64,000 bases of DNA from Bacteriovoracia bacterium (GTDB lineage Bacteria > Bdellovibrionota > UBA1018 > CAIPTA01). The translations under genes and the position numbers were made by a program. Of the stretch, positions 6,999 to 14,584 are shown one piece after another. The stretch is from assembly GCA_050246755.1 (NCBI GenBank), contig JBFWVL010000001.1, forward strand, positions 1,600,001-1,664,000. Direction: 5' to 3'. Numbering within the stretch: position 1 is the first letter of the stretch; each line of letters opens with the position of its first letter. Under the pieces are notes generated by a model. It made no database searches. It was not told the DNA's origin and worked only from the letters and a program-made list of their open reading frames with translations.

Positions 6999-7849
6999 AG
7001 TTTGCTCTTTCGATGATGTTGGGTTTGTGGGCCCTGTATTCTTTTTCCGGCTGCGCGATGATCGATTCGCTGCGCGATGAAAGCGCCACCATCGATGCCG
7101 AAGCCGGTACCGATCATGATCGCGAAGGAAATACTTCCGACATAGAGCGCCCTGTGCAAAGGCAGCGCGGGCTGAACGGCCTGAGCGCCAATAATGTTCC
7201 CAGCTACGAGCCCTCCGTGGCGCGCGGCTATGGGCGCCGGCTCTCGAGCCTCGCCAACGACGACGCTCCCGCCGCCATCAGTTCCGCGCAGCAGGAATTC
7301 CGCCGTGCGACCCGCGAGGATTTCATCGATAAGCAGGCCCACGAAAACAGCCTTTGGGACGGACAGGGCCAAGGCAACTACCTCTTTTCCAATAACCGTA
7401 AGCGCGAAGTGGGCGATCTCATGACCGGCGAAGTGGAAAAGGATCTCAAGCGCGAGATCCAATACCAGCTCTGGATGACGCTCCCGCCGGAACAGCGCAA
7501 GACCAAGCGCGCTCCGGCTAGCGTGGCGGGTGCGGCCACCGATCCGGCCGCGAAGGCCGCCGCGGCCGCCGAAGCCGGAAAATCCGCCGAGGAAAAGGGC
7601 AAGGACGCTGCCGCCGAAGCCGCGAAAACCAATATGGCCGATACCAAGGACGACGACGTGGTTCGCATGGAAGTGGTGGAGAGCCTCGGCAACGGGCTCG
7701 TGCGCGTGGTGGGCCAGAAGCGCGTGATCTACCGCGGAGTGTCCCGCGTGGTGGAAGTGATGGCGCTCGTGAACAACAAAGACGTCGACGACAATAACCG
7801 CGTGAAGAGTTCTAACTTCCTCGACATGAAGACCCAGGTGATCCAATGA
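6995..7849 (+). CDS. flgH: flagellar L-ring lipoprotein FlgH
   Basis: lipobox FSGC, NSLW...YLF...VGD, VVESLGNGLVRVVGQK; synteny. Confidence 0.8.
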   Translation: MKFALSMMLGLWALYSFSGCAMIDSLRDESATIDAEAGTDHDREGNTSDIERPVQRQRGLNGLSANNVPSYEPSVARGYGRRLSSLANDDAPAAISSAQQEFRRATREDFIDKQAHENSLWDGQGQGNYLFSNNRKREVGDLMTGEVEKDLKREIQYQLWMTLPPEQRKTKRAPASVAGAATDPAAKAAAAAEAGKSAEEKGKDAAAEAAKTNMADTKDDDVVRMEVVESLGNGLVRVVGQKRVIYRGVSRVVEVMALVNNKDVDDNNRVKSSNFLDMKTQVIQ

Positions 7850-8853
7850 AAAATTTAATTGCCCTCGCTCTCGCCCTCGCCTTTCTTCCGCAGCCGGCCG
7901 ACGCCGCGCGCCTGAAGGATATCGTGCGCATCAAGGGCGTGCGCGAAAACCTTCTCATCGGGTACGGACTCGTGGTGGGCCTCAAGGGCACCGGGGATTC
8001 CAGCGCCGAAGTAACGGGCAAAGCCTTGCTGCGCATGTTCAGTAAGATGGGAATGAATATCGAAACGGAAGTGAAATCCAAGAACGTGGCTTCCGTGGTG
8101 GTGACCGCAAAGATTCCCGCGTTCTCGAGAGCTGGGCAGAAGCTCGACGTTACCGTATCCAGCGTGGGCGATGCGGGCAGCCTTGAAGGCGGCACGCTCC
8201 TGATCTCGCCGCTGCGAGCGGGCGACCAGCAGGTATACGCCGTGGCGCAGGGACCGGTGAGCCTGGGTTCGGCGACGGACGGCAGCGGAAAGTTCGCTAC
8301 GAACGGACGCGTGCCCATGGGCGCGATCGTGGAGAAGGAATTGGCGGGCGATTTCGCCAATAAGAAGGCGCTCCGTCTGAATTTAGACGAACCCGACTTT
8401 ACAACCGTGGCCCGCGTCAGCCGCGTGATCAATACGGAGCTCGGCGGCAAATACGCAACCTCCGTGGACCAGAACACCGTGGACCTGATCGTTCCATTTT
8501 CTTACGACGGGAACGCCGTCGAATTAATGGCGGTGCTGGAAAATTTGACGGTGAATACCGACACGCGCGCACGCGTGGTGATTAACGAGCGTACCGGAAC
8601 CGTGGTAACCGGCGGTAAAGTACGCATCAAAAACGTGGCTCTGTCGCATGGCGACTTATCCATTCAAGTGGCCGGCGCCAAGAATGCGAAGAAGGGGGAG
8701 GGGAAGAAAGTGATGGAAATTCCAAGCACTACGAACGTCTCCGAGCTCGCCACGATGCTTAATGAAATGGGGGTGGGGCCCAAAGACCTCACCGCAATTT
8801 TTCAGTCGCTCAAGGCGGCCGGTGCTCTCGAGGGTGATTTAGAAATACTCTGA
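7846..8853 (+). CDS. flgI: flagellar P-ring protein FlgI
   Basis: ARLKDI...GVRENLLIGYGLVVGLKGTGD, SLEGGTL, VVINERTGTVV. Confidence 0.97.
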   Translation: MKNLIALALALAFLPQPADAARLKDIVRIKGVRENLLIGYGLVVGLKGTGDSSAEVTGKALLRMFSKMGMNIETEVKSKNVASVVVTAKIPAFSRAGQKLDVTVSSVGDAGSLEGGTLLISPLRAGDQQVYAVAQGPVSLGSATDGSGKFATNGRVPMGAIVEKELAGDFANKKALRLNLDEPDFTTVARVSRVINTELGGKYATSVDQNTVDLIVPFSYDGNAVELMAVLENLTVNTDTRARVVINERTGTVVTGGKVRIKNVALSHGDLSIQVAGAKNAKKGEGKKVMEIPSTTNVSELATMLNEMGVGPKDLTAIFQSLKAAGALEGDLEIL

Positions 8854-8868
8854 GGCAATTTGCCGGCT

Positions 8869-8884
8869 TGGCAAGGAGCGTGCA
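8869..8884 (+). promoter_or_regulatory. sigma54 -24/-12 promoter in flgI-flgJ spacer
   Basis: TGGCAAGGAGCGTGCA, GG(8870-71)-N10-GC(8882-83). Confidence 0.65.
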
Positions 8885-8894
8885 TTAGGTTCAG

Positions 8895-9072
8895 CAGGTG
8901 CACGATTCTAGGATGGAATCATGTGGAACTCACGCAGGAAACAGGAAAAAGCTTCGTTTGCCATGGATGGCGTTCAAGAATTTCTAGTTTTGAGTTTCCG
9001 ATCGCAAGGATGCGAACTGCACCTCGGAGCAGGGAGACCCCGGAAGAATGGGTCTCCCCGCTTCTTTATTTT
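8895..9072 (+). ncRNA. candidate CsrA-binding (Csr/Rsm-like) sRNA or attenuator leader
   Basis: 10 GGA in about 135 nt, three in hairpin loops; closing stem AGGTGCA/TGCACCT; promoter upstream and terminator downstream. Confidence 0.65.
9026..9072 (+). terminator. intrinsic terminator just upstream of flgJ
   Basis: GGAGC-A-GGGAGACCC-loop-GGGTCTCCC-C-GCTTC followed by TTTATTTT. Confidence 0.7.
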
Positions 9073-9086
9073 AGAAGGGATTGCGC

Positions 9087-9446
9087 ATGAAAATCGATAG
9101 CCCGCGCCTCCCGGCTCCACCTCAACCCGTTGATCCCGAATCTCTCAGTAAAGATCATCCGCTCTGGCAAGCCGCGCAGGGAATGGAAGCGAACTTTATG
9201 AAAGAGATGGTACGCAATATGCGTAAGACCGTGCAGGAAAGCCCGGAGATGGAAAATAGCCGGGGGTATCAGATTTTTCGCGGCATGCTCGACGACCAGT
9301 ACGCCGAGACCGCGGTGAAAACTCAGGGCATCGGATTGGCCGAGCTTATCGTGCGCCAGGTATTGGAGATGCAAGAGAATGCCCGGGCTGCCAGCGCTCC
9401 GGTTCCGGTGAGAGAAGTAAATAAAAGTGATGTTCTCAAGAAATAA
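9087..9446 (+). CDS. flgJ: short rod-binding protein FlgJ (no muramidase domain)
   Basis: AAQGMEANFMKEMVRNMRKTV...FRGMLDDQYA...GIGLAELIVRQ. Confidence 0.9.
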   Translation: MKIDSPRLPAPPQPVDPESLSKDHPLWQAAQGMEANFMKEMVRNMRKTVQESPEMENSRGYQIFRGMLDDQYAETAVKTQGIGLAELIVRQVLEMQENARAASAPVPVREVNKSDVLKK

Positions 9447-9537
9447 AGATTCAAGGCATTTTGGCAGGACGTGTTAAGATTGAGTTATGAGGTAAACTCT
9501 CGGTAAGCGAGGGTACAAGGTTCAGGAAGGACAACTC

Positions 9538-9864
9538 ATGAAGGTAAATAATCATAAAGATTCCGTAGAGCTCTCGCAGCTCTCTCGTTCCAAAAAAGGC
9601 GAAAAAGCCGGAGCAGCGAAGGCCCAAGAAGGCGGCGCCGATTCTCTCGCGAGCGCAATCGCTCCTGGATCCACGGCTAACGTGGAAATTTCCAGCGAAG
9701 CGAAAACGCTTTCCGCCGCGAACCAAGCCGCCCGCGCCGGCGGCGTAGACCAGGAAAAAATTGATCGCATCAAAGCAGCGATCAACGGTGGAACCTACAA
9801 GCCCGACTTCGGGAAAGTTGCAGATAAAATGATTAACGAGACCGTGCTCCAGGATCTCTCGTAA
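9538..9864 (+). CDS. flgM: anti-sigma28 factor FlgM
   Basis: VEISSEAK...DQEKIDRIKAAINGGTYKPD...VADKM. Confidence 0.92.
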   Translation: MKVNNHKDSVELSQLSRSKKGEKAGAAKAQEGGADSLASAIAPGSTANVEISSEAKTLSAANQAARAGGVDQEKIDRIKAAINGGTYKPDFGKVADKMINETVLQDLS

Positions 9865-9910
9865 CCGAGAGTTTTTCCGGGGCTCTCGTCATGGATGATG
9901 AGGGACGACC

Positions 9911-10432
9911 ATGGATGGCCTAGCTCCAGATCTAGAGGAACTTACTAAGAACCTCAAGCACCAGCTCACGCTGTACCGCCAGCTCGTGGATTTGCTGCGC
10001 AGCGAGCGCGAGCATATCGTGGCCGTTCGCCTAAAAGAGATTCGCGAATCCACTTATTCCAAAGAAGCCCTGCTCGATGAAGTGCACCGCGAAGAGTTTC
10101 GCCGCATGCGCTGGGTGAAGCAGGCGTCCACCTTTCTCGGCCTTTCCGAAAAAGAAATCACCATGGAGATGGTGGCTTCGAAAATCGGCGGCCCCGAGCA
10201 GTACGAGTCGATGTTCAGCCTGAAGCAAGCCCTTCTGCACATGGTGAAGAAGGCGCGCGACATGAATCACGACAATCAGCAGCTCGTGACCACCGCTCTC
10301 AAGGACGCGCAGCTCCTGAAGCGCAATATTTTGGGCCTCTCTTCGGACCAGCCGCAAGTCTATGGTCCCAAGGGCAGCATCGGATCGGCCGTGCGCGATC
10401 AAAGCGCCCGTTTCGTGAATAAGGAACTCTAG
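9911..10432 (+). CDS. flgN: flagellar export chaperone FlgN
   Basis: helical protein between flgM and flgK with C-terminal YGPKG motif. Confidence 0.85.
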   Translation: MDGLAPDLEELTKNLKHQLTLYRQLVDLLRSEREHIVAVRLKEIRESTYSKEALLDEVHREEFRRMRWVKQASTFLGLSEKEITMEMVASKIGGPEQYESMFSLKQALLHMVKKARDMNHDNQQLVTTALKDAQLLKRNILGLSSDQPQVYGPKGSIGSAVRDQSARFVNKEL

Positions 10433-11857
10433 ATGGGCAGTACCGTAAACATGTTCAATATTGGGAAGAGTGGCCTCATGGTCACCAAGCAGGCGTTGAC
10501 CACGACCTCCCATAATATCGCGAACGTGAATACGGAAGGCTACTCGCGACAAAACGTGGAACAAGGCTCTGCCCCTCCCACCACGAATGGGCGCCTTACG
10601 ATCGGCCAAGGAGCCTTCGCTAAAAAAGTTACCCGCGTCAGCGACGAGTACCTCGAGAAACGCATCCAGAGCGAACATAAGAACTTTGCCAATATGGAGG
10701 AAAAAGACGTTTACCTCCAGCAAACCGAGCAGATCTTCAATGAGTCGAATAACGATGGCTTGAATCGCCTCGCCACCCGCTTCTTCAACGAGTTCCGCCA
10801 GCTTTCCACGGATCCTTCCAATCCTGCGATCCGCGCGGCTGTGCGTGAGTCCAGTAGCCAGCTCTCTTCCGACATCAACCGCATGGACCGGGAGCTAAAA
10901 GAAGTTTCCCACAATATCGACGCTCGCCTTGAAGGCTACGTGCGCGAAGTGAACTCGCTGGCCCGCGAAGTGCGCGACCTCAATCTCTTGATCCAGAAGT
11001 CCGAGCTCGGCGGCGGCGAAGCTCCCGATCTTCACGACAAGCAAGATCTCGCGCTGAAAAAACTCGGCGCCCTCGCAGATATTTCTACCAGCAAAGACAA
11101 TAATGGGCGCGTGACGGTTACGCTCGCCGGCCAAGTGGCGATCGTGGCGGGCGAGATGGTGAAGGAGCTCGAAACGAGCCGCACGCCCGCGGATCCCGCC
11201 AGCGGCAAGCCCGAGGGCGCCATGGACATTTTCATCAGCGATCCGGTGCCCGCGAAAATGACCGGCTTTCTCAAGACCGGCCGCCTGGGAGGATTGCTCG
11301 AGGTGCGCGATAAGGATATCGGCGCCGCCCAGGACCGCATCAATACCATCGCCTTTACCATGGCGAACGAAGTGAACAATTTGCACCGTCAGGGCTTCGG
11401 CCTCGATGGCGCCGGTAACCGAAACTTCTTTGCGCAGCCGCTCAATAAAGAATCCGCGGCCGCCACGCTCAAAATCAGTGCCGATATCGCCGACAATCTC
11501 GACGCCATCGCCGCCGCCAAGGATCCTGCCGGGCAGAGCGACAACCGCATGGCAGTGGCCCTCTCCGGGCTGGGCGATCTCAAGGGCGTGATGGGCGATC
11601 AGAATTCGTCGATTCTCGATTCCTATAACTCGATGGTGTCGGAACTCGCGGTAAAGACCGGAGCCACGAAGCGTGGCCTCGTCTTCCAGAAAGACGTCCT
11701 CTCCCAGCTCGAGAACGTGCGTGAGTCTCTGGTGGGAGTGAACCTCGATGAGGAAACTGCGAACCTAATTAGGTTCCAGCACGCGTATGCGGCGAGCGCG
11801 AAGGTGATGTCGGTGGCCGACGAAACGCTGCAAAGCGTTTTGAATATGTTTAAGTAA
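10433..11857 (+). CDS. flgK: hook-associated protein FlgK
   Basis: TSHNIANVNTEGYSRQ; GVNLDEETANLIRFQHAYAASAKV. Confidence 0.96.
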   Translation: MGSTVNMFNIGKSGLMVTKQALTTTSHNIANVNTEGYSRQNVEQGSAPPTTNGRLTIGQGAFAKKVTRVSDEYLEKRIQSEHKNFANMEEKDVYLQQTEQIFNESNNDGLNRLATRFFNEFRQLSTDPSNPAIRAAVRESSSQLSSDINRMDRELKEVSHNIDARLEGYVREVNSLAREVRDLNLLIQKSELGGGEAPDLHDKQDLALKKLGALADISTSKDNNGRVTVTLAGQVAIVAGEMVKELETSRTPADPASGKPEGAMDIFISDPVPAKMTGFLKTGRLGGLLEVRDKDIGAAQDRINTIAFTMANEVNNLHRQGFGLDGAGNRNFFAQPLNKESAAATLKISADIADNLDAIAAAKDPAGQSDNRMAVALSGLGDLKGVMGDQNSSILDSYNSMVSELAVKTGATKRGLVFQKDVLSQLENVRESLVGVNLDEETANLIRFQHAYAASAKVMSVADETLQSVLNMFK

Positions 11858-11873
11858 ACGGGGGCTCTGAGCG

Positions 11874-12857
11874 ATGAGAGTGGGCGAAAACACAACTTTG
11901 AACACCGTGCGGGATAGCCTGAACCGCTCGCGCTTGCGCATGAATGATTTGCAAAAAGAGAACTCCACGCTCAAGCGCGTGAATGCTCCTCACGACGATC
12001 CCGTGGGCAACGCGAAATTAATGTCGATCCGCAATGAGCAGCTCGATAATACCGAGTTCGAGCGCAATGCCAACCTCGCCAAAACTTTTCTTAATTATAC
12101 CGACTCCTCCCTTGAGGAAGTGACCAACCTGCTCGTGCGCGCCAAAGAGCTCGCGCTGGGGCAGGCCAGCTCCGCGGCGAATGGCGCTGAATCGCGCGCG
12201 ATGGTGGCCGAAGAGATCAAAAATATTCAGGCGGAAATCAGCTCGATCGCTAACCGCCGCCTCGGCGACCGCTTTATCTTTTCGGGCTATCGCACCGCCA
12301 CCACCCCTTTCGACGAAAGCGGCAACTACGCCGGCGACGACGGAAAGATCATGGTGGAAGTGCAAAAGGATGTATTCGTGGGAATGAACGTGCCCGGCCG
12401 CGAGATTTTCCTCGGCGCCGCTAAGGCTCCCGCGAGCCGTGATCCGGCCAGCATGGAGCTCCAGGCTGAACAGACCACCCAGGGGCCAGAAATGGCTACT
12501 AAGCAGAAAGCCGAGCGCCCGAACGAAGATATTTTTCGTACTTTAGACGCCCTCCGCGTGGGCCTGATGACGAACGATGTGGACGGCATCCGTGCCACTC
12601 TCGAGCCTCTTGATCAGGTACGTGACCGCGTGATCACCACCCGGGCCCAAGTGGGCGCCCGGATGTCCGGAATCGATTCTGCCCTCTCAAATATGGGCAA
12701 ACGTGGCGTATTCAACGCGGAGCTTCAGTCGAATATCGAAGACGCCGACATCATCCAAGTAGTGTCTGATATGGCACGAGAAGAGAGCGTTTTGCGGGCC
12801 AGCCTGCAGGCCTCTAATAAGCTCATCCAGCCCACGCTCTTAGACTTTTTGCGCTAG
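11874..12857 (+). CDS. flgL: hook-associated protein FlgL
   Basis: HDDPVG, RFIFSGYRT...PF, QPTLLDFLR. Confidence 0.95.
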   Translation: MRVGENTTLNTVRDSLNRSRLRMNDLQKENSTLKRVNAPHDDPVGNAKLMSIRNEQLDNTEFERNANLAKTFLNYTDSSLEEVTNLLVRAKELALGQASSAANGAESRAMVAEEIKNIQAEISSIANRRLGDRFIFSGYRTATTPFDESGNYAGDDGKIMVEVQKDVFVGMNVPGREIFLGAAKAPASRDPASMELQAEQTTQGPEMATKQKAERPNEDIFRTLDALRVGLMTNDVDGIRATLEPLDQVRDRVITTRAQVGARMSGIDSALSNMGKRGVFNAELQSNIEDADIIQVVSDMAREESVLRASLQASNKLIQPTLLDFLR

Positions 12858-12943
12858 GGCCATTGCTACAACCTCTGAAATCGGTTATTCACACCCTCAC
12901 TTAGGGACAGAGTCCCTCATAGGGATATGAGAGGTTTTGCAGT

Positions 12944-13204
12944 ATGCTAGTTTTGACCAGGAAACTCGGCGAATCTATCGCCATCGACGATCACATCAAA
13001 ATCATGGTCGTTCAGATCAAGGGTAAGCAAGTCCGTTTGGGCATTCAGGCTCCCAAAGAGACTAAAATTCACCGCCAAGAAGTCTACGAAGCTATTCAGA
13101 CGTCTAATAAAGAAGCTGCGGCTTCCTCCCCCAAATCCGTGAGCCAAGTAGCCGAAATGATGAAACGTGGCGGCTCCTCCGAAAACGACGGAAAAAATTC
13201 CTAA
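12944..13204 (+). CDS. csrA: carbon storage regulator CsrA
   Basis: MLVLTRKLGESIAI...VRLGIQAPKETKIHRQEVY, with the C-terminal extension typical of FliW-partnered CsrA. Confidence 0.97.
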   Translation: MLVLTRKLGESIAIDDHIKIMVVQIKGKQVRLGIQAPKETKIHRQEVYEAIQTSNKEAAASSPKSVSQVAEMMKRGGSSENDGKNS

Positions 13205-13275: not shown

Positions 13276-13827
13276 ATGAAAGTAAATACAAGCCGTTTTG
13301 GTGCCGTTGAAGTTGCTGATTCCGACATTATGGAATTTGCCGATGGCTTGCTCGGATTCGAGCAGTTGCAACGATTCTTCATCGTAGATCCCGCGGATGA
13401 AACTCTCATCCTATGGCTGCAGTCGATGGATTCGCCCGATGTGGCGTTCCCGATTCTCGAGCCGAGGCTCTTCAAGGCTGACTACAAAGTGCGGCTCTCG
13501 GCGAATGAGCTGCGCTCCCTGAAAATCGATTCCACCAAGAATAAAGACACCCTGGTGTACTGCATTCTCACCATTCCTGCCGATGTGATCTCGATGAGCG
13601 CGAACCTTAAGGCGCCGATCGTGATCAATACCGGAAGCCGCATGGCCCGCCAAGTGGTTCTGCAGGAGAATGAATACTCGGTGAAATTCCCGATCTACAA
13701 AGAGCTCCTTGCGGTGATGATGTCGGCTGGCGGCTCGGTGGCGAAAAAAGAGAAAACGCAAGACCTGCCGGTTTCGGCGCTCTCGCTGCGGGATACTTCT
13801 TCCCAAGTGGAAGTTTCGGCTCTTTAA
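13276..13827 (+). CDS. fliW: flagellar assembly factor FliW (CsrA antagonist)
   Basis: TSRFG, GLLGFE, WLQS, SANLKAPIVIN. Confidence 0.95.
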   Translation: MKVNTSRFGAVEVADSDIMEFADGLLGFEQLQRFFIVDPADETLILWLQSMDSPDVAFPILEPRLFKADYKVRLSANELRSLKIDSTKNKDTLVYCILTIPADVISMSANLKAPIVINTGSRMARQVVLQENEYSVKFPIYKELLAVMMSAGGSVAKKEKTQDLPVSALSLRDTSSQVEVSAL

Positions 13828-13845: not shown

Positions 13846-13880
13846 AAAGAGGGGATGGCGAAAGCCGTCCCTTTTTTATT
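13846..13880. terminator. bidirectional terminator between fliW and TPR gene
   Basis: GGGATGGC-GAAA-GCCGTCCC with A/T flanks. Confidence 0.8.
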
Positions 13881-14584
13881 TAGAGCGAGCTCTCGGTGGA
13901 TTGCCGGGTCATGTCCAAATACATCTTCACTTGGCGATTGGCGGGGTCTTTCATCTGCGCCTCCTGCAATTCGATCTGCGCATCCACCACATTGCCGAGC
14001 GCATGATAGAGCAGGGCGAGATGCACGCGCGCGTTCACGTGGTCGGGATTTTCGCGCACGAGATTTTCCAATTCTTGCTGAGCGAGCTTCATTTGCCCGC
14101 GCTGTCCGTGAGTTTTCGCCAACAGAATGCGGGCCTCGATATTCTCGGGGTCTACGCGGCCGGCTTTGAGGAATTCGTTGGCGGCTTCATCGAAGCGCTG
14201 GAGCTTACGGTAGAGGTTGCCGAGCTCGAGGTGTTTGGCGGAGATTTCTTTGCCGAGCATGATGCTCGGGGTGGGGCCGCCTGATTTGCGGTGCGCGCTT
14301 TTTTCCGCCTGCGCGAAAACCTGTGCGCCTTCTTGGTAGTGGCCGGTATCATTGTAGATCACGGAGAGGCTGATCGCGGCATCGGTGAAGTGGGGGTCGA
14401 GCTGGAGCGCGCGTTTGAAGCGGTCCACGGCTTCGCCAAGGCGATTTTCCCGGTGAAAAATCGTGCCGAGCACGTACTGGGTTTCAGCGGTGGCCGCGCC
14501 GGCAGAATCAATATCCAGCAGGAGATCCTTGGCGGCTTCCGAATGGCCTTGCGCAAGGAGGCGTTTGGCGTCGTCTAAATTCAT
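13880..14584 (-). CDS. tetratricopeptide repeat protein
   Basis: repeated TPR patterns (LG.I...G.A...F.RAL.LDP); overlaps bamD stop. Confidence 0.85.
   Translation of the reverse strand: MNLDDAKRLLAQGHSEAAKDLLLDIDSAGAATAETQYVLGTIFHRENRLGEAVDRFKRALQLDPHFTDAAISLSVIYNDTGHYQEGAQVFAQAEKSAHRKSGGPTPSIMLGKEISAKHLELGNLYRKLQRFDEAANEFLKAGRVDPENIEARILLAKTHGQRGQMKLAQQELENLVRENPDHVNARVHLALLYHALGNVVDAQIELQEAQMKDPANRQVKMYLDMTRQSTESSL

Follow-up and report, generated by a model that had tools for sequence, protein, structure and literature searches.

A GGA-hairpin RNA between flgI and flgJ as a candidate CsrA-binding leader and terminated decoy in Bacteriovoracia

Does a flagellar operon that encodes both CsrA and FliW also encode an RNA that binds CsrA? 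This question is raised by a 64,000-nucleotide (nt) stretch of DNA from a Bacteriovoracia bacterium (assembly GCA_050246755.1, contig JBFWVL010000001.1, positions 1,600,001 to 1,664,000 of the forward strand; hereafter the window), in which flgA, flgH, flgI, flgJ, flgM, flgN, flgK, flgL, csrA and fliW follow one another on the plus strand, as assigned by Pfam. A gap of 233 nt (8854–9086) separates the end of flgI at 8853 from the flgJ ATG at 9087–9089. A first-pass annotation, which had placed this gap in a csrA–fliW flagellar cluster with coordinates that we found to be correct throughout, proposed that it holds either a small RNA (sRNA) antagonist of CsrA or a CsrA-sensitive leader. Control of CsrA is commonly presented as taking one of two mutually exclusive forms, decoy sRNAs in Gammaproteobacteria and the FliW protein in other bacteria. 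FliW and decoy sRNAs are treated as alternatives, and fliW is described as anti-correlated with the sRNA route, in the sections of PMC4682653 and PMC7652899 cited here, which leave open whether species with FliW have inhibitory sRNAs. Our preferred reading of the gap, to which we assign a probability of about 0.5, is a dual one, in which the RNA would be a CsrA-binding leader of the flgJ–fliW operon whose terminated form acts as a decoy.

The element begins with a predicted sigma54-type promoter, TTGGCAAG-N5-TGCA (8868–8884, plus strand), in which the GG-N10-GC pattern recognised in the first pass is formed by a GG at 8870–8871 (−24) and a GC at 8882–8883 (−12). Given the usual promoter spacing, transcription is predicted to start near 8895, 192 nt before the flgJ ATG, and a structured RNA of ~178 nt, either a leader or a terminated sRNA, would span 8895–9072 on the plus strand, as judged from its fold, its covariation and the matches of a covariance model described below. 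Its main domain is closed by helix P1, which pairs 8896–8902 with 9018–9024, and holds the P2 hairpin (8904–8920, loop GGA at 8911–8913, −5.7 kcal/mol), the inner helix P3 (8926–8931 with 8990–8995), a purine tract (CAGGAAACAGGAAAAA, 8935–8950, with GGA at 8937 and 8944), the P5 hairpin GCCA-UGGA-UGGC (8960–8971) and the P6 hairpin UCGCA-AGGA-UGCGA (9002–9015, −5.3 kcal/mol, z-score −4.65). The three GGA-loop hairpins and the enclosing helix, all of which had been proposed in the first pass, are contained in the minimum-free-energy fold of the 178-nt stretch, and the inner stem is present as well. Downstream of this domain, a terminator-like hairpin (9026–9064, loop GGA at 9042–9044) is followed by a U-tract at 9065–9072 that ends 14–15 nt 5' of the flgJ ATG, in agreement with the strong terminator postulated about 15 nt before this codon; with −25.7 kcal/mol and a z-score of −4.33, the hairpin was equalled by none of 200 shuffled sequences. 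A simple terminator scan made no call on the hairpin, which we attribute to its loop of 9 nt, since the scan allows a maximum of 8.

The complete 178-nt stretch folds at −64.5 kcal/mol (z-score −3.16), a value reached by 1 of 200 shuffles. As counted previously, ten GGA triplets follow the promoter, all within 8895–9072, with one more at 9078 and another inside the promoter at 8876; this density compares with a genome mean of 3.15 per 178 nt (standard deviation 1.77) and lies in the top 0.15% of windows. Of the GGA triplets, four are displayed in loops and another two in a tract for which no pairing is supported, a form of display shared with CsrA-sequestering sRNAs. The single sequence is unusual but not unique, and its statistics are only moderate; the case therefore rests on conservation and covariation among relatives.

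The gap sequence, which is single-copy in its own genome, is conserved at 66–80% nucleotide identity in all eight other genomes of the window's family, always between flgI and flgJ, as found by BLAST. Both genomes of the sister family (f2) were matched as well by a covariance model built on the complete RNA (R1), so that all 11 genomes of the order are covered, with E-values from 1e-15 to 5e-50 that, like those of the second model used below, are rough. In every one of these genomes the promoter, the fold and the terminator are retained between flgI and flgJ. In a model-free MAFFT alignment of nine relatives, 92.1% of cells pair, and sliding the partners lowers this to 31–49%; two-sided changes affect 18 of 52 pairs, a number reached by none of 500 shuffles. 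The model-fitted alignment of all 11 sequences gave 95.0% of cells pairing, against 34–47% slid, with two-sided changes at 29 of the 52 pairs and again none of 500 shuffles reaching that count. These counts overstate independence, all compared genomes being kin.

Compensatory changes are present in four helices. In the 11 sequences, two-sided changes were found at 6/7 pairs of P1 (3/7 in the MAFFT alignment of nine), 3/7 of P2, 5/6 of P3 and 12/14 of the terminator hairpin, so that the enclosing helix and inner stem both covary; the G-U pairs in the helices fit the plus strand. The GGA triplets are the most constant letters of the element in the order: they are kept in 11/11 genomes in the P2 loop, the P6 loop and both tract sites, in 10/11 in the P5 loop and in 9/11 in the terminator loop. 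The sequence GCAGG of the tract is invariant, and a U-run follows the terminator stem in all 11 genomes. Conservation of the GGA loops in relatives, on which the first-pass annotation had made its proposal depend, is thus borne out by alignment.

The promoter is preserved to a similar extent: TGGCAAG-N5-TGCA is kept in 11/11 genomes of the order, while its 5-nt spacer and its flanks vary. The GG and GC doublets lie 10 nt apart, and the window's own genome contains one copy of rpoN and 27 matches above cut-off to the Sigma54_activat family, 23 of them strong, which is consistent with a sigma54 promoter as predicted from sequence. Many candidate sigma54 promoters in this genome end alike (TGGCAY-N5-TTGCTCT), and judging from its 27 activator matches the sigma54 regulon appears large for a 3.5-Mb genome.

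A weak R1 match in another family (G105) likewise lay in a flgI–flgJ gap, and we therefore compared the DNA after flgI in 39 further genomes from 11 families; several of our statements on other families rest on sequences read by eye. Gene order was unchanged across these genomes, and a class-wide core recurred, consisting of a GGA-loop hairpin, a CAGGAAAC tract, a second hairpin type GCUAGGAUGG and a third type GCAUGGAAGC, with CAGG..A invariant in the class alignment of 37 sequences. With a model of this core (R2), a single strong match was obtained in 114 of 127 genomes from the class, including 71 of the 75 high-quality genomes; 112 of the 114 matches lie 5–162 nt after flgI on the same strand, and the two exceptions fall at contig breaks. 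In a sample of the phylum searched with strict filters, R2 matched 0 of 127 genomes of other classes and 20 of 24 of the window's class. Across the class, the third hairpin (P6) changes on both sides at four of its five stem pairs, in 10–21 of 47 sequences, on either side of a fixed GGA loop. Further R1 matches outside the order, in G020 and G090, were weak, lay away from any flagellar genes and resemble chance hits. The flgI–flgJ synteny is kept without the motif in G017 (f6) and G028 (f9), two members of the class, and the gap in G017 measures only ~27 nt.

Where would this RNA act? From the U-tract to the flgJ start there are only ~10–40 nt in 11/11 genomes of the order, and reading the sequence of the flgJ–flgM gap revealed no recognisable promoter; flgJ, and probably the operon through fliW, would therefore be transcribed through the RNA. 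By its position, the element is a leader of this predicted transcript. It shares with the 5' untranslated regions (UTRs) of CsrA-regulated genes a predicted start upstream and the lack of promoter space before the coding sequence, and with attenuators an intrinsic-type terminator between promoter and the flgJ open reading frame (ORF). Hairpin and U-tract resemble an efficient intrinsic terminator in all 11 genomes, and a search of the 11 sequences for a conserved antiterminator found none, the best duplexes of the terminator arms with upstream RNA having, against shuffled arms, z-scores of −2.1 to +1.8 at inconsistent positions. If read-through is regulated, a protein would therefore have to mediate it; alternatively, the terminator is simply leaky. 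Many transcripts should accordingly end near 9072 as a ~178-nt RNA, which makes a terminated decoy a plausible product. Thus, of the two roles proposed in the first pass, a conserved, structured plus-strand RNA with its predicted promoter and terminator stands for both, and the comparative data favour the CsrA-sensitive leader as the primary one.

The alternative that survives best is a purely trans-acting CsrA sponge, that is, an independent sigma54-driven sRNA gene from which flgJ receives background read-through only. It would account for a promoter and a strong hairpin with U-tract conserved in 11/11 genomes, for five to six conserved GGA sites of which four are in loops, for a predicted 5' end at the base of P1 and for the missing antiterminator. 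However, it leaves flgJ without any other recognisable promoter, and probably the operon through fliW as well; moreover, in the rest of the class the motif has neither its own promoter nor its own terminator and immediately precedes the translation start region of flgJ or lies within it, and in G007 and family f8 the flgJ frame passes through the hairpin. We consider an independent sponge gene unlikely.

The region between terminator and flgJ offers a possible further handle for control in an 8-codon upstream ORF (9048–9074, plus strand), read from the sequence and only putatively translated, whose ATG lies in the loop of the 3' hairpin and whose stop lies 13 nt before the flgJ ATG. The ATG in this loop occurs in 9/9 genomes of the window's family (f1) and in 0/2 of the sister family, and in G007 the sole in-frame ATG for flgJ sits there. 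The flgJ gene itself (9087–9446, plus strand) encodes a 119-amino-acid protein with the rod-binding domain only (PF10135, E 9e-15), and its start is conserved in 7/9 family members by tblastn from residue 1. It is preceded by a Shine-Dalgarno-like AAGGGA at 9075–9080 that contains a GGA, and most relatives have an AGGAG-type Shine-Dalgarno sequence, but any Shine-Dalgarno sequence tends to contain GGA. A search of RNA runs for window positions 8400–9700 found none that contains them. Metatranscriptome contigs from two runs yielded three fragments less than 90% alike, one of which, of 114 nt, touches 8956–8998; they are uninformative on expression.

A(N)GGA loops on variable stems, together with single-stranded GGA, are the established signature of CsrA sites. 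In the order and class alignments alike, the invariant positions are the GGA triplets in loops, and the stems vary. We propose CsrA as the ligand because the GGA loops are constant on variable stems and because the genome's only csrA, together with fliW, shares the operon with the element; on this comparative pattern, the RNA probably captures or senses CsrA. The csrA gene (12944–13204, plus strand, 86 amino acids, PF02599, E 6e-26) is single-copy in its own genome and is followed by fliW (13276–13827, plus strand, PF02623, E 3e-37); across the class, csrA lies ~4 kb downstream of flgI. At four further sites of the same genome, namely two flagellin leaders and the starts of flgM and flgN, a GGA hairpin accompanies a GGA triplet in the Shine-Dalgarno region.

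As a structured leader or 3' UTR, the element could instead bind something other than CsrA. Hfq might occupy the A-rich purine tract, and a different flagellar RNA-binding protein or a small ligand are further candidates; it could also act through RNA stability only. Structure and covariation do not identify a ligand, the purine tract is indeed A/G-rich, GGA hairpins are common in the window's genome, and the motif is missing from two csrA-bearing genomes of the class. Against this, CsrA sites are expected to show just such invariant loop GGA on variable stems, the operon itself encodes CsrA and FliW, and neither a riboswitch nor any other Rfam family was matched at the window's locus or at 20 related loci. 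We regard a ligand other than CsrA, or a role in RNA stability, as less likely still than an independent sponge.

Several places outside the element also carry GGA hairpins or repeats. Two of five flagellin genes (C1:1741934–1742200 and C1:1743032–1743300, both on the minus strand and outside the window) have leaders resembling classical CsrA operators. Within the window, two AUGGA hairpins overlie the translation start of flgN (9885–9918), GGA repeats occupy the flgM Shine-Dalgarno site (9523–9531), and GGGA hairpins lie upstream of csrA (12905–12935). In family f22 of another class (L107–L118), the flgI–flgJ spacers are ~80–130 nt long and AT-rich with −10-like boxes, and five genomes (G156, G265, G134, G203 and G240) show, by eye, a GGA-loop hairpin and a GGA at the flgJ Shine-Dalgarno site. 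These f22 spacers suggest that flgJ may have come under CsrA control before the class-specific motif arose.

Could the conservation instead reflect a protein? In eight other families (f3, f4, f5, f7, f10, f11, f13 and f14; L047–L086), an unannotated ORF, which we call orfX, fills the gap (for example L070:33–335). Read as CAG GAA AC, the tract lies in a frame that stays open for 61–130 codons in 33/33 loci, starting at a GTG that overlaps the flgI stop and ending at a TGA that overlaps the flgJ start; orfX has conserved peptide motifs, contains the GGA hairpins and matched no Pfam family. Changes in the third hairpin swap unrelated amino acids, and RNA structure is therefore selected there too. 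In family f8 (L064–L066), the reading frame that crosses the second hairpin continues in frame into flgJ, with 173–206 codons open; there the RNA domain begins ~6 nt after the flgI stop, leaving no space for a promoter, and the putative start of the coding region contains a hairpin with a U-rich tail.

By analogy, a 76-codon ORF at 8860–9090 in the window might be a local orfX, conserved at the protein level. It is open, overlaps the flgJ start through an ATGA in the manner of orfX and shares the orfX frame at the CAG GAA AC codons, and this frame is open through to flgJ in 6/9 genomes of the window's family. However, the frame closes within 21–54 nt of the CAG in G005, G007 and G006, and G009 closes it within 57 nt. 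The length of sequence left open in the flgJ frame ranges from 9 to 246 nt, and the peptides are unrelated in their 3' halves. Alignment gaps of 1, 2, 5, 7, 8 and 10 nt occur, after which the peptides of even close relatives diverge, and the P5 hairpin, located 22–25 nt from the CAG across the family by our count, falls in differing frames. Several frames are open simultaneously in the purine-rich stretch, helices P1 and P3 covary, and the predicted sigma54 promoter would lie inside the first codons of the ORF. Retention of the frame among relatives, the mark of a coding region, is therefore found in the eight other families and not in the window's own. As the frame is not kept in the window's family, we read the element there as an RNA rather than an ORF: the 76-codon ORF is most likely not a gene, and a small protein is a very improbable explanation of the gap.

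Weakest of all, and in our view scarcely credible, is a decaying orfX remnant next to an ordinary flgFGAHI-operon terminator without regulatory function, since, even though other parts of the class have a coding region from which the element derives, or which it overlaps, and a terminator after flgI is unremarkable, the gap is 66–80% identical across the family with invariant loops, four helices carry compensatory changes and the promoter is conserved in 11/11 genomes.

Returning to the dual reading of a CsrA-binding leader with a terminated decoy form, several observations weigh against it, in addition to the missing antiterminator. The genome holds 299 equally GGA-rich clusters and 194 places with at least four GGA-loop hairpins per 150 nt, so that such clusters are not rare. 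The promoter pattern is near chance genome-wide, with 71 matches against ~57 expected by our own arithmetic from base composition; the promoter ends in TGCAT, and many of the best candidates in the genome, read by eye, end in TTGCTCT. The same promoter subtype was not seen before another flagellar gene at the 10 sites checked, where translated starts were judged by eye without a family scan. Within the fold, helix P4 shows two-sided changes at 0/7 pairs; since this predicted pairing is without covariation, the purine tract that it would involve is probably exposed. Class-wide, P5 is kept mostly by sequence, with two-sided changes at 1/6 pairs. In the other families, the second hairpin has paired changes at third codon positions that are synonymous without being compensatory, and, together with the coding character of orfX, this means that part of the class-wide sequence conservation may be protein-driven. 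Lastly, csrA is universal in the class (75/75 high-quality genomes), and co-occurrence of csrA and the motif therefore gives no support; the motif-less G017 and G028 still carry csrA.

Taking these points together with the conservation and covariation described above, we propose the following course of events. A sigma54-dependent start near 8895 would yield a non-coding RNA of ~178 nt (8895–9072), whose P1-closed domain would present the A(N)GGA loops of P2, P5 and P6 along with an exposed CAGGAAACAGGA tract, a fourth loop GGA being offered by the 3' hairpin. Multi-site platforms of this kind are bound by CsrA dimers, and this one could hold two or three. The flgJ-flgM-flgN-flgK-flgL-csrA-fliW operon would have the RNA as its 5' leader. 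With most transcription ending at the U-tract, a small CsrA-binding decoy would accumulate, and read-through transcripts would bear the CsrA platform and the GGA-loop hairpin ahead of flgJ. CsrA occupancy might then tune, upwards or downwards, read-through, translation of the upstream ORF and/or of flgJ, and through these the synthesis of CsrA and FliW; the class of the promoter and the transcript ends, like CsrA as the ligand, are predictions from sequence. Since both CsrA and FliW are products of this operon, the element may complete an autoregulatory loop.

Upstream of the element lies flgI, encoding the P-ring protein (7846–8853, plus strand, PF02119, E 3e-107); flgM, flgN, flgK and flgL, assigned by Pfam, occupy 9538–12857 on the plus strand. 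A terminator-like hairpin with a T-run after fliW (13852–13881, plus strand), read by eye and without a tool score, is the likely end of the operon.

How does the element compare with known CsrA-binding RNAs? A resemblance to the TwoAYGGAY motif or to the CsrB/RsmY/RsmZ families, raised in the first-pass annotation, was not borne out at the level of Rfam: no family matched with E ≤ 10 in window positions 8000–10000, and none with E ≤ 1 in 20 related loci. Permissive matches to sR30, Six3os1 and mir-1249 were at chance level. Judged by these searches, the element belongs to no described RNA family. In general plan it is like RsmY/RsmZ and CsrB/CsrC of Gammaproteobacteria, which are short RNAs with GGA in and between hairpin loops and an intrinsic terminator, and its proposed action, competing with mRNAs for CsrA, is also the same; it matches them in Rfam neither by sequence nor by structure. 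The promoters of these Gammaproteobacterial sRNAs are GacA/UvrY-dependent, whereas that of the element is predicted to be of sigma54 type, and, unlike these sRNAs, the element lies inside a flagellar operon, before a gene dependent on read-through, in a host that has fliW. With the TwoAYGGAY motif it shares AYGGAY-type hairpin loops, P5 here being AUGGAU, but it gave no covariance-model match with E ≤ 10, carries three or four hairpins within its closed domain, and has AAGGAU in the loop of P6.

Among enterobacterial cases, the Salmonella fim 5' UTR titrates CsrA, the pgaA leader is subject to CsrA-dependent attenuation, and iraD is repressed by CsrA via a coupled upstream ORF. All three modes, decoy, read-through control and a coupled upstream ORF, are conceivable for the present element too. 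They operate through Rho or through translation, not through an intrinsic terminator whose loop carries GGA, and none is known to be sigma54-driven or flagellar.

Closer in lineage are flagellar leaders of species with FliW and CsrA. In the parts of the literature cited, the hag leader of Bacillus subtilis is a flagellar mRNA regulated by FliW and CsrA (PMC7652899, PMC13443453), and the flaA mRNA of Campylobacter jejuni is described as dual-function (PMC4894983). These leaders resemble the element in being flagellar, in belonging to FliW–CsrA lineages, and in carrying GGA hairpins in the 5' leader, and an mRNA leader that in addition titrates CsrA follows the logic that we propose for the element; they are short two-site operators over the flagellin Shine-Dalgarno sequence, whereas the element is a ~130-nt helix-closed platform with five to six sites and a terminator, located before flgJ. 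CsrA regulation in Bdellovibrio is called nearly unknown in the relevant section of PMC13443453, and in the literature searched we found no description of this RNA or of a CsrA-binding RNA in Bdellovibrionota or FliW lineages. Within the same phylum, Bdellovibrio bacteriovorus HD100 has an abundant 207-nt attack-phase sRNA with a mapped start, APsRNA1 (Karunker et al. 2013, PMC3627812, Table 2). A correspondence with the element is unconfirmed: PMC3627812, the only paper found to use the name APsRNA1, gives coordinates only (499,375–499,581 in HD100), and no flgI lies near 499 kb in 29 genomes of the candidate genus. R2, moreover, matched nothing outside the window's class, and the flgI–flgJ spacers sampled in the other family measure only ~80–130 nt.

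A bolder proposal goes beyond the dual reading: that the element represents the first RNA to antagonise CsrA in a lineage that also uses FliW, as a sigma54-timed decoy produced when transcription of the flgJ–csrA–fliW leader ends prematurely. It would have arisen when a small protein-coding gene between flgI and flgJ, already studded with CsrA hairpins, lost its frame and turned into a dedicated RNA. We advance this proposal tentatively, as an idea with the odds clearly against it. One sequence apparently serves as a coding region in some families and as a pure RNA in others. If the proposal were true, CsrA activity in these predators would be set jointly by the FliW/flagellin partner switch and by an RNA decoy tied to basal-body transcription. 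With its occurrence in 114 of 127 genomes, the element provides a class-wide RNA candidate for asking whether FliW lineages have inhibitory sRNAs.

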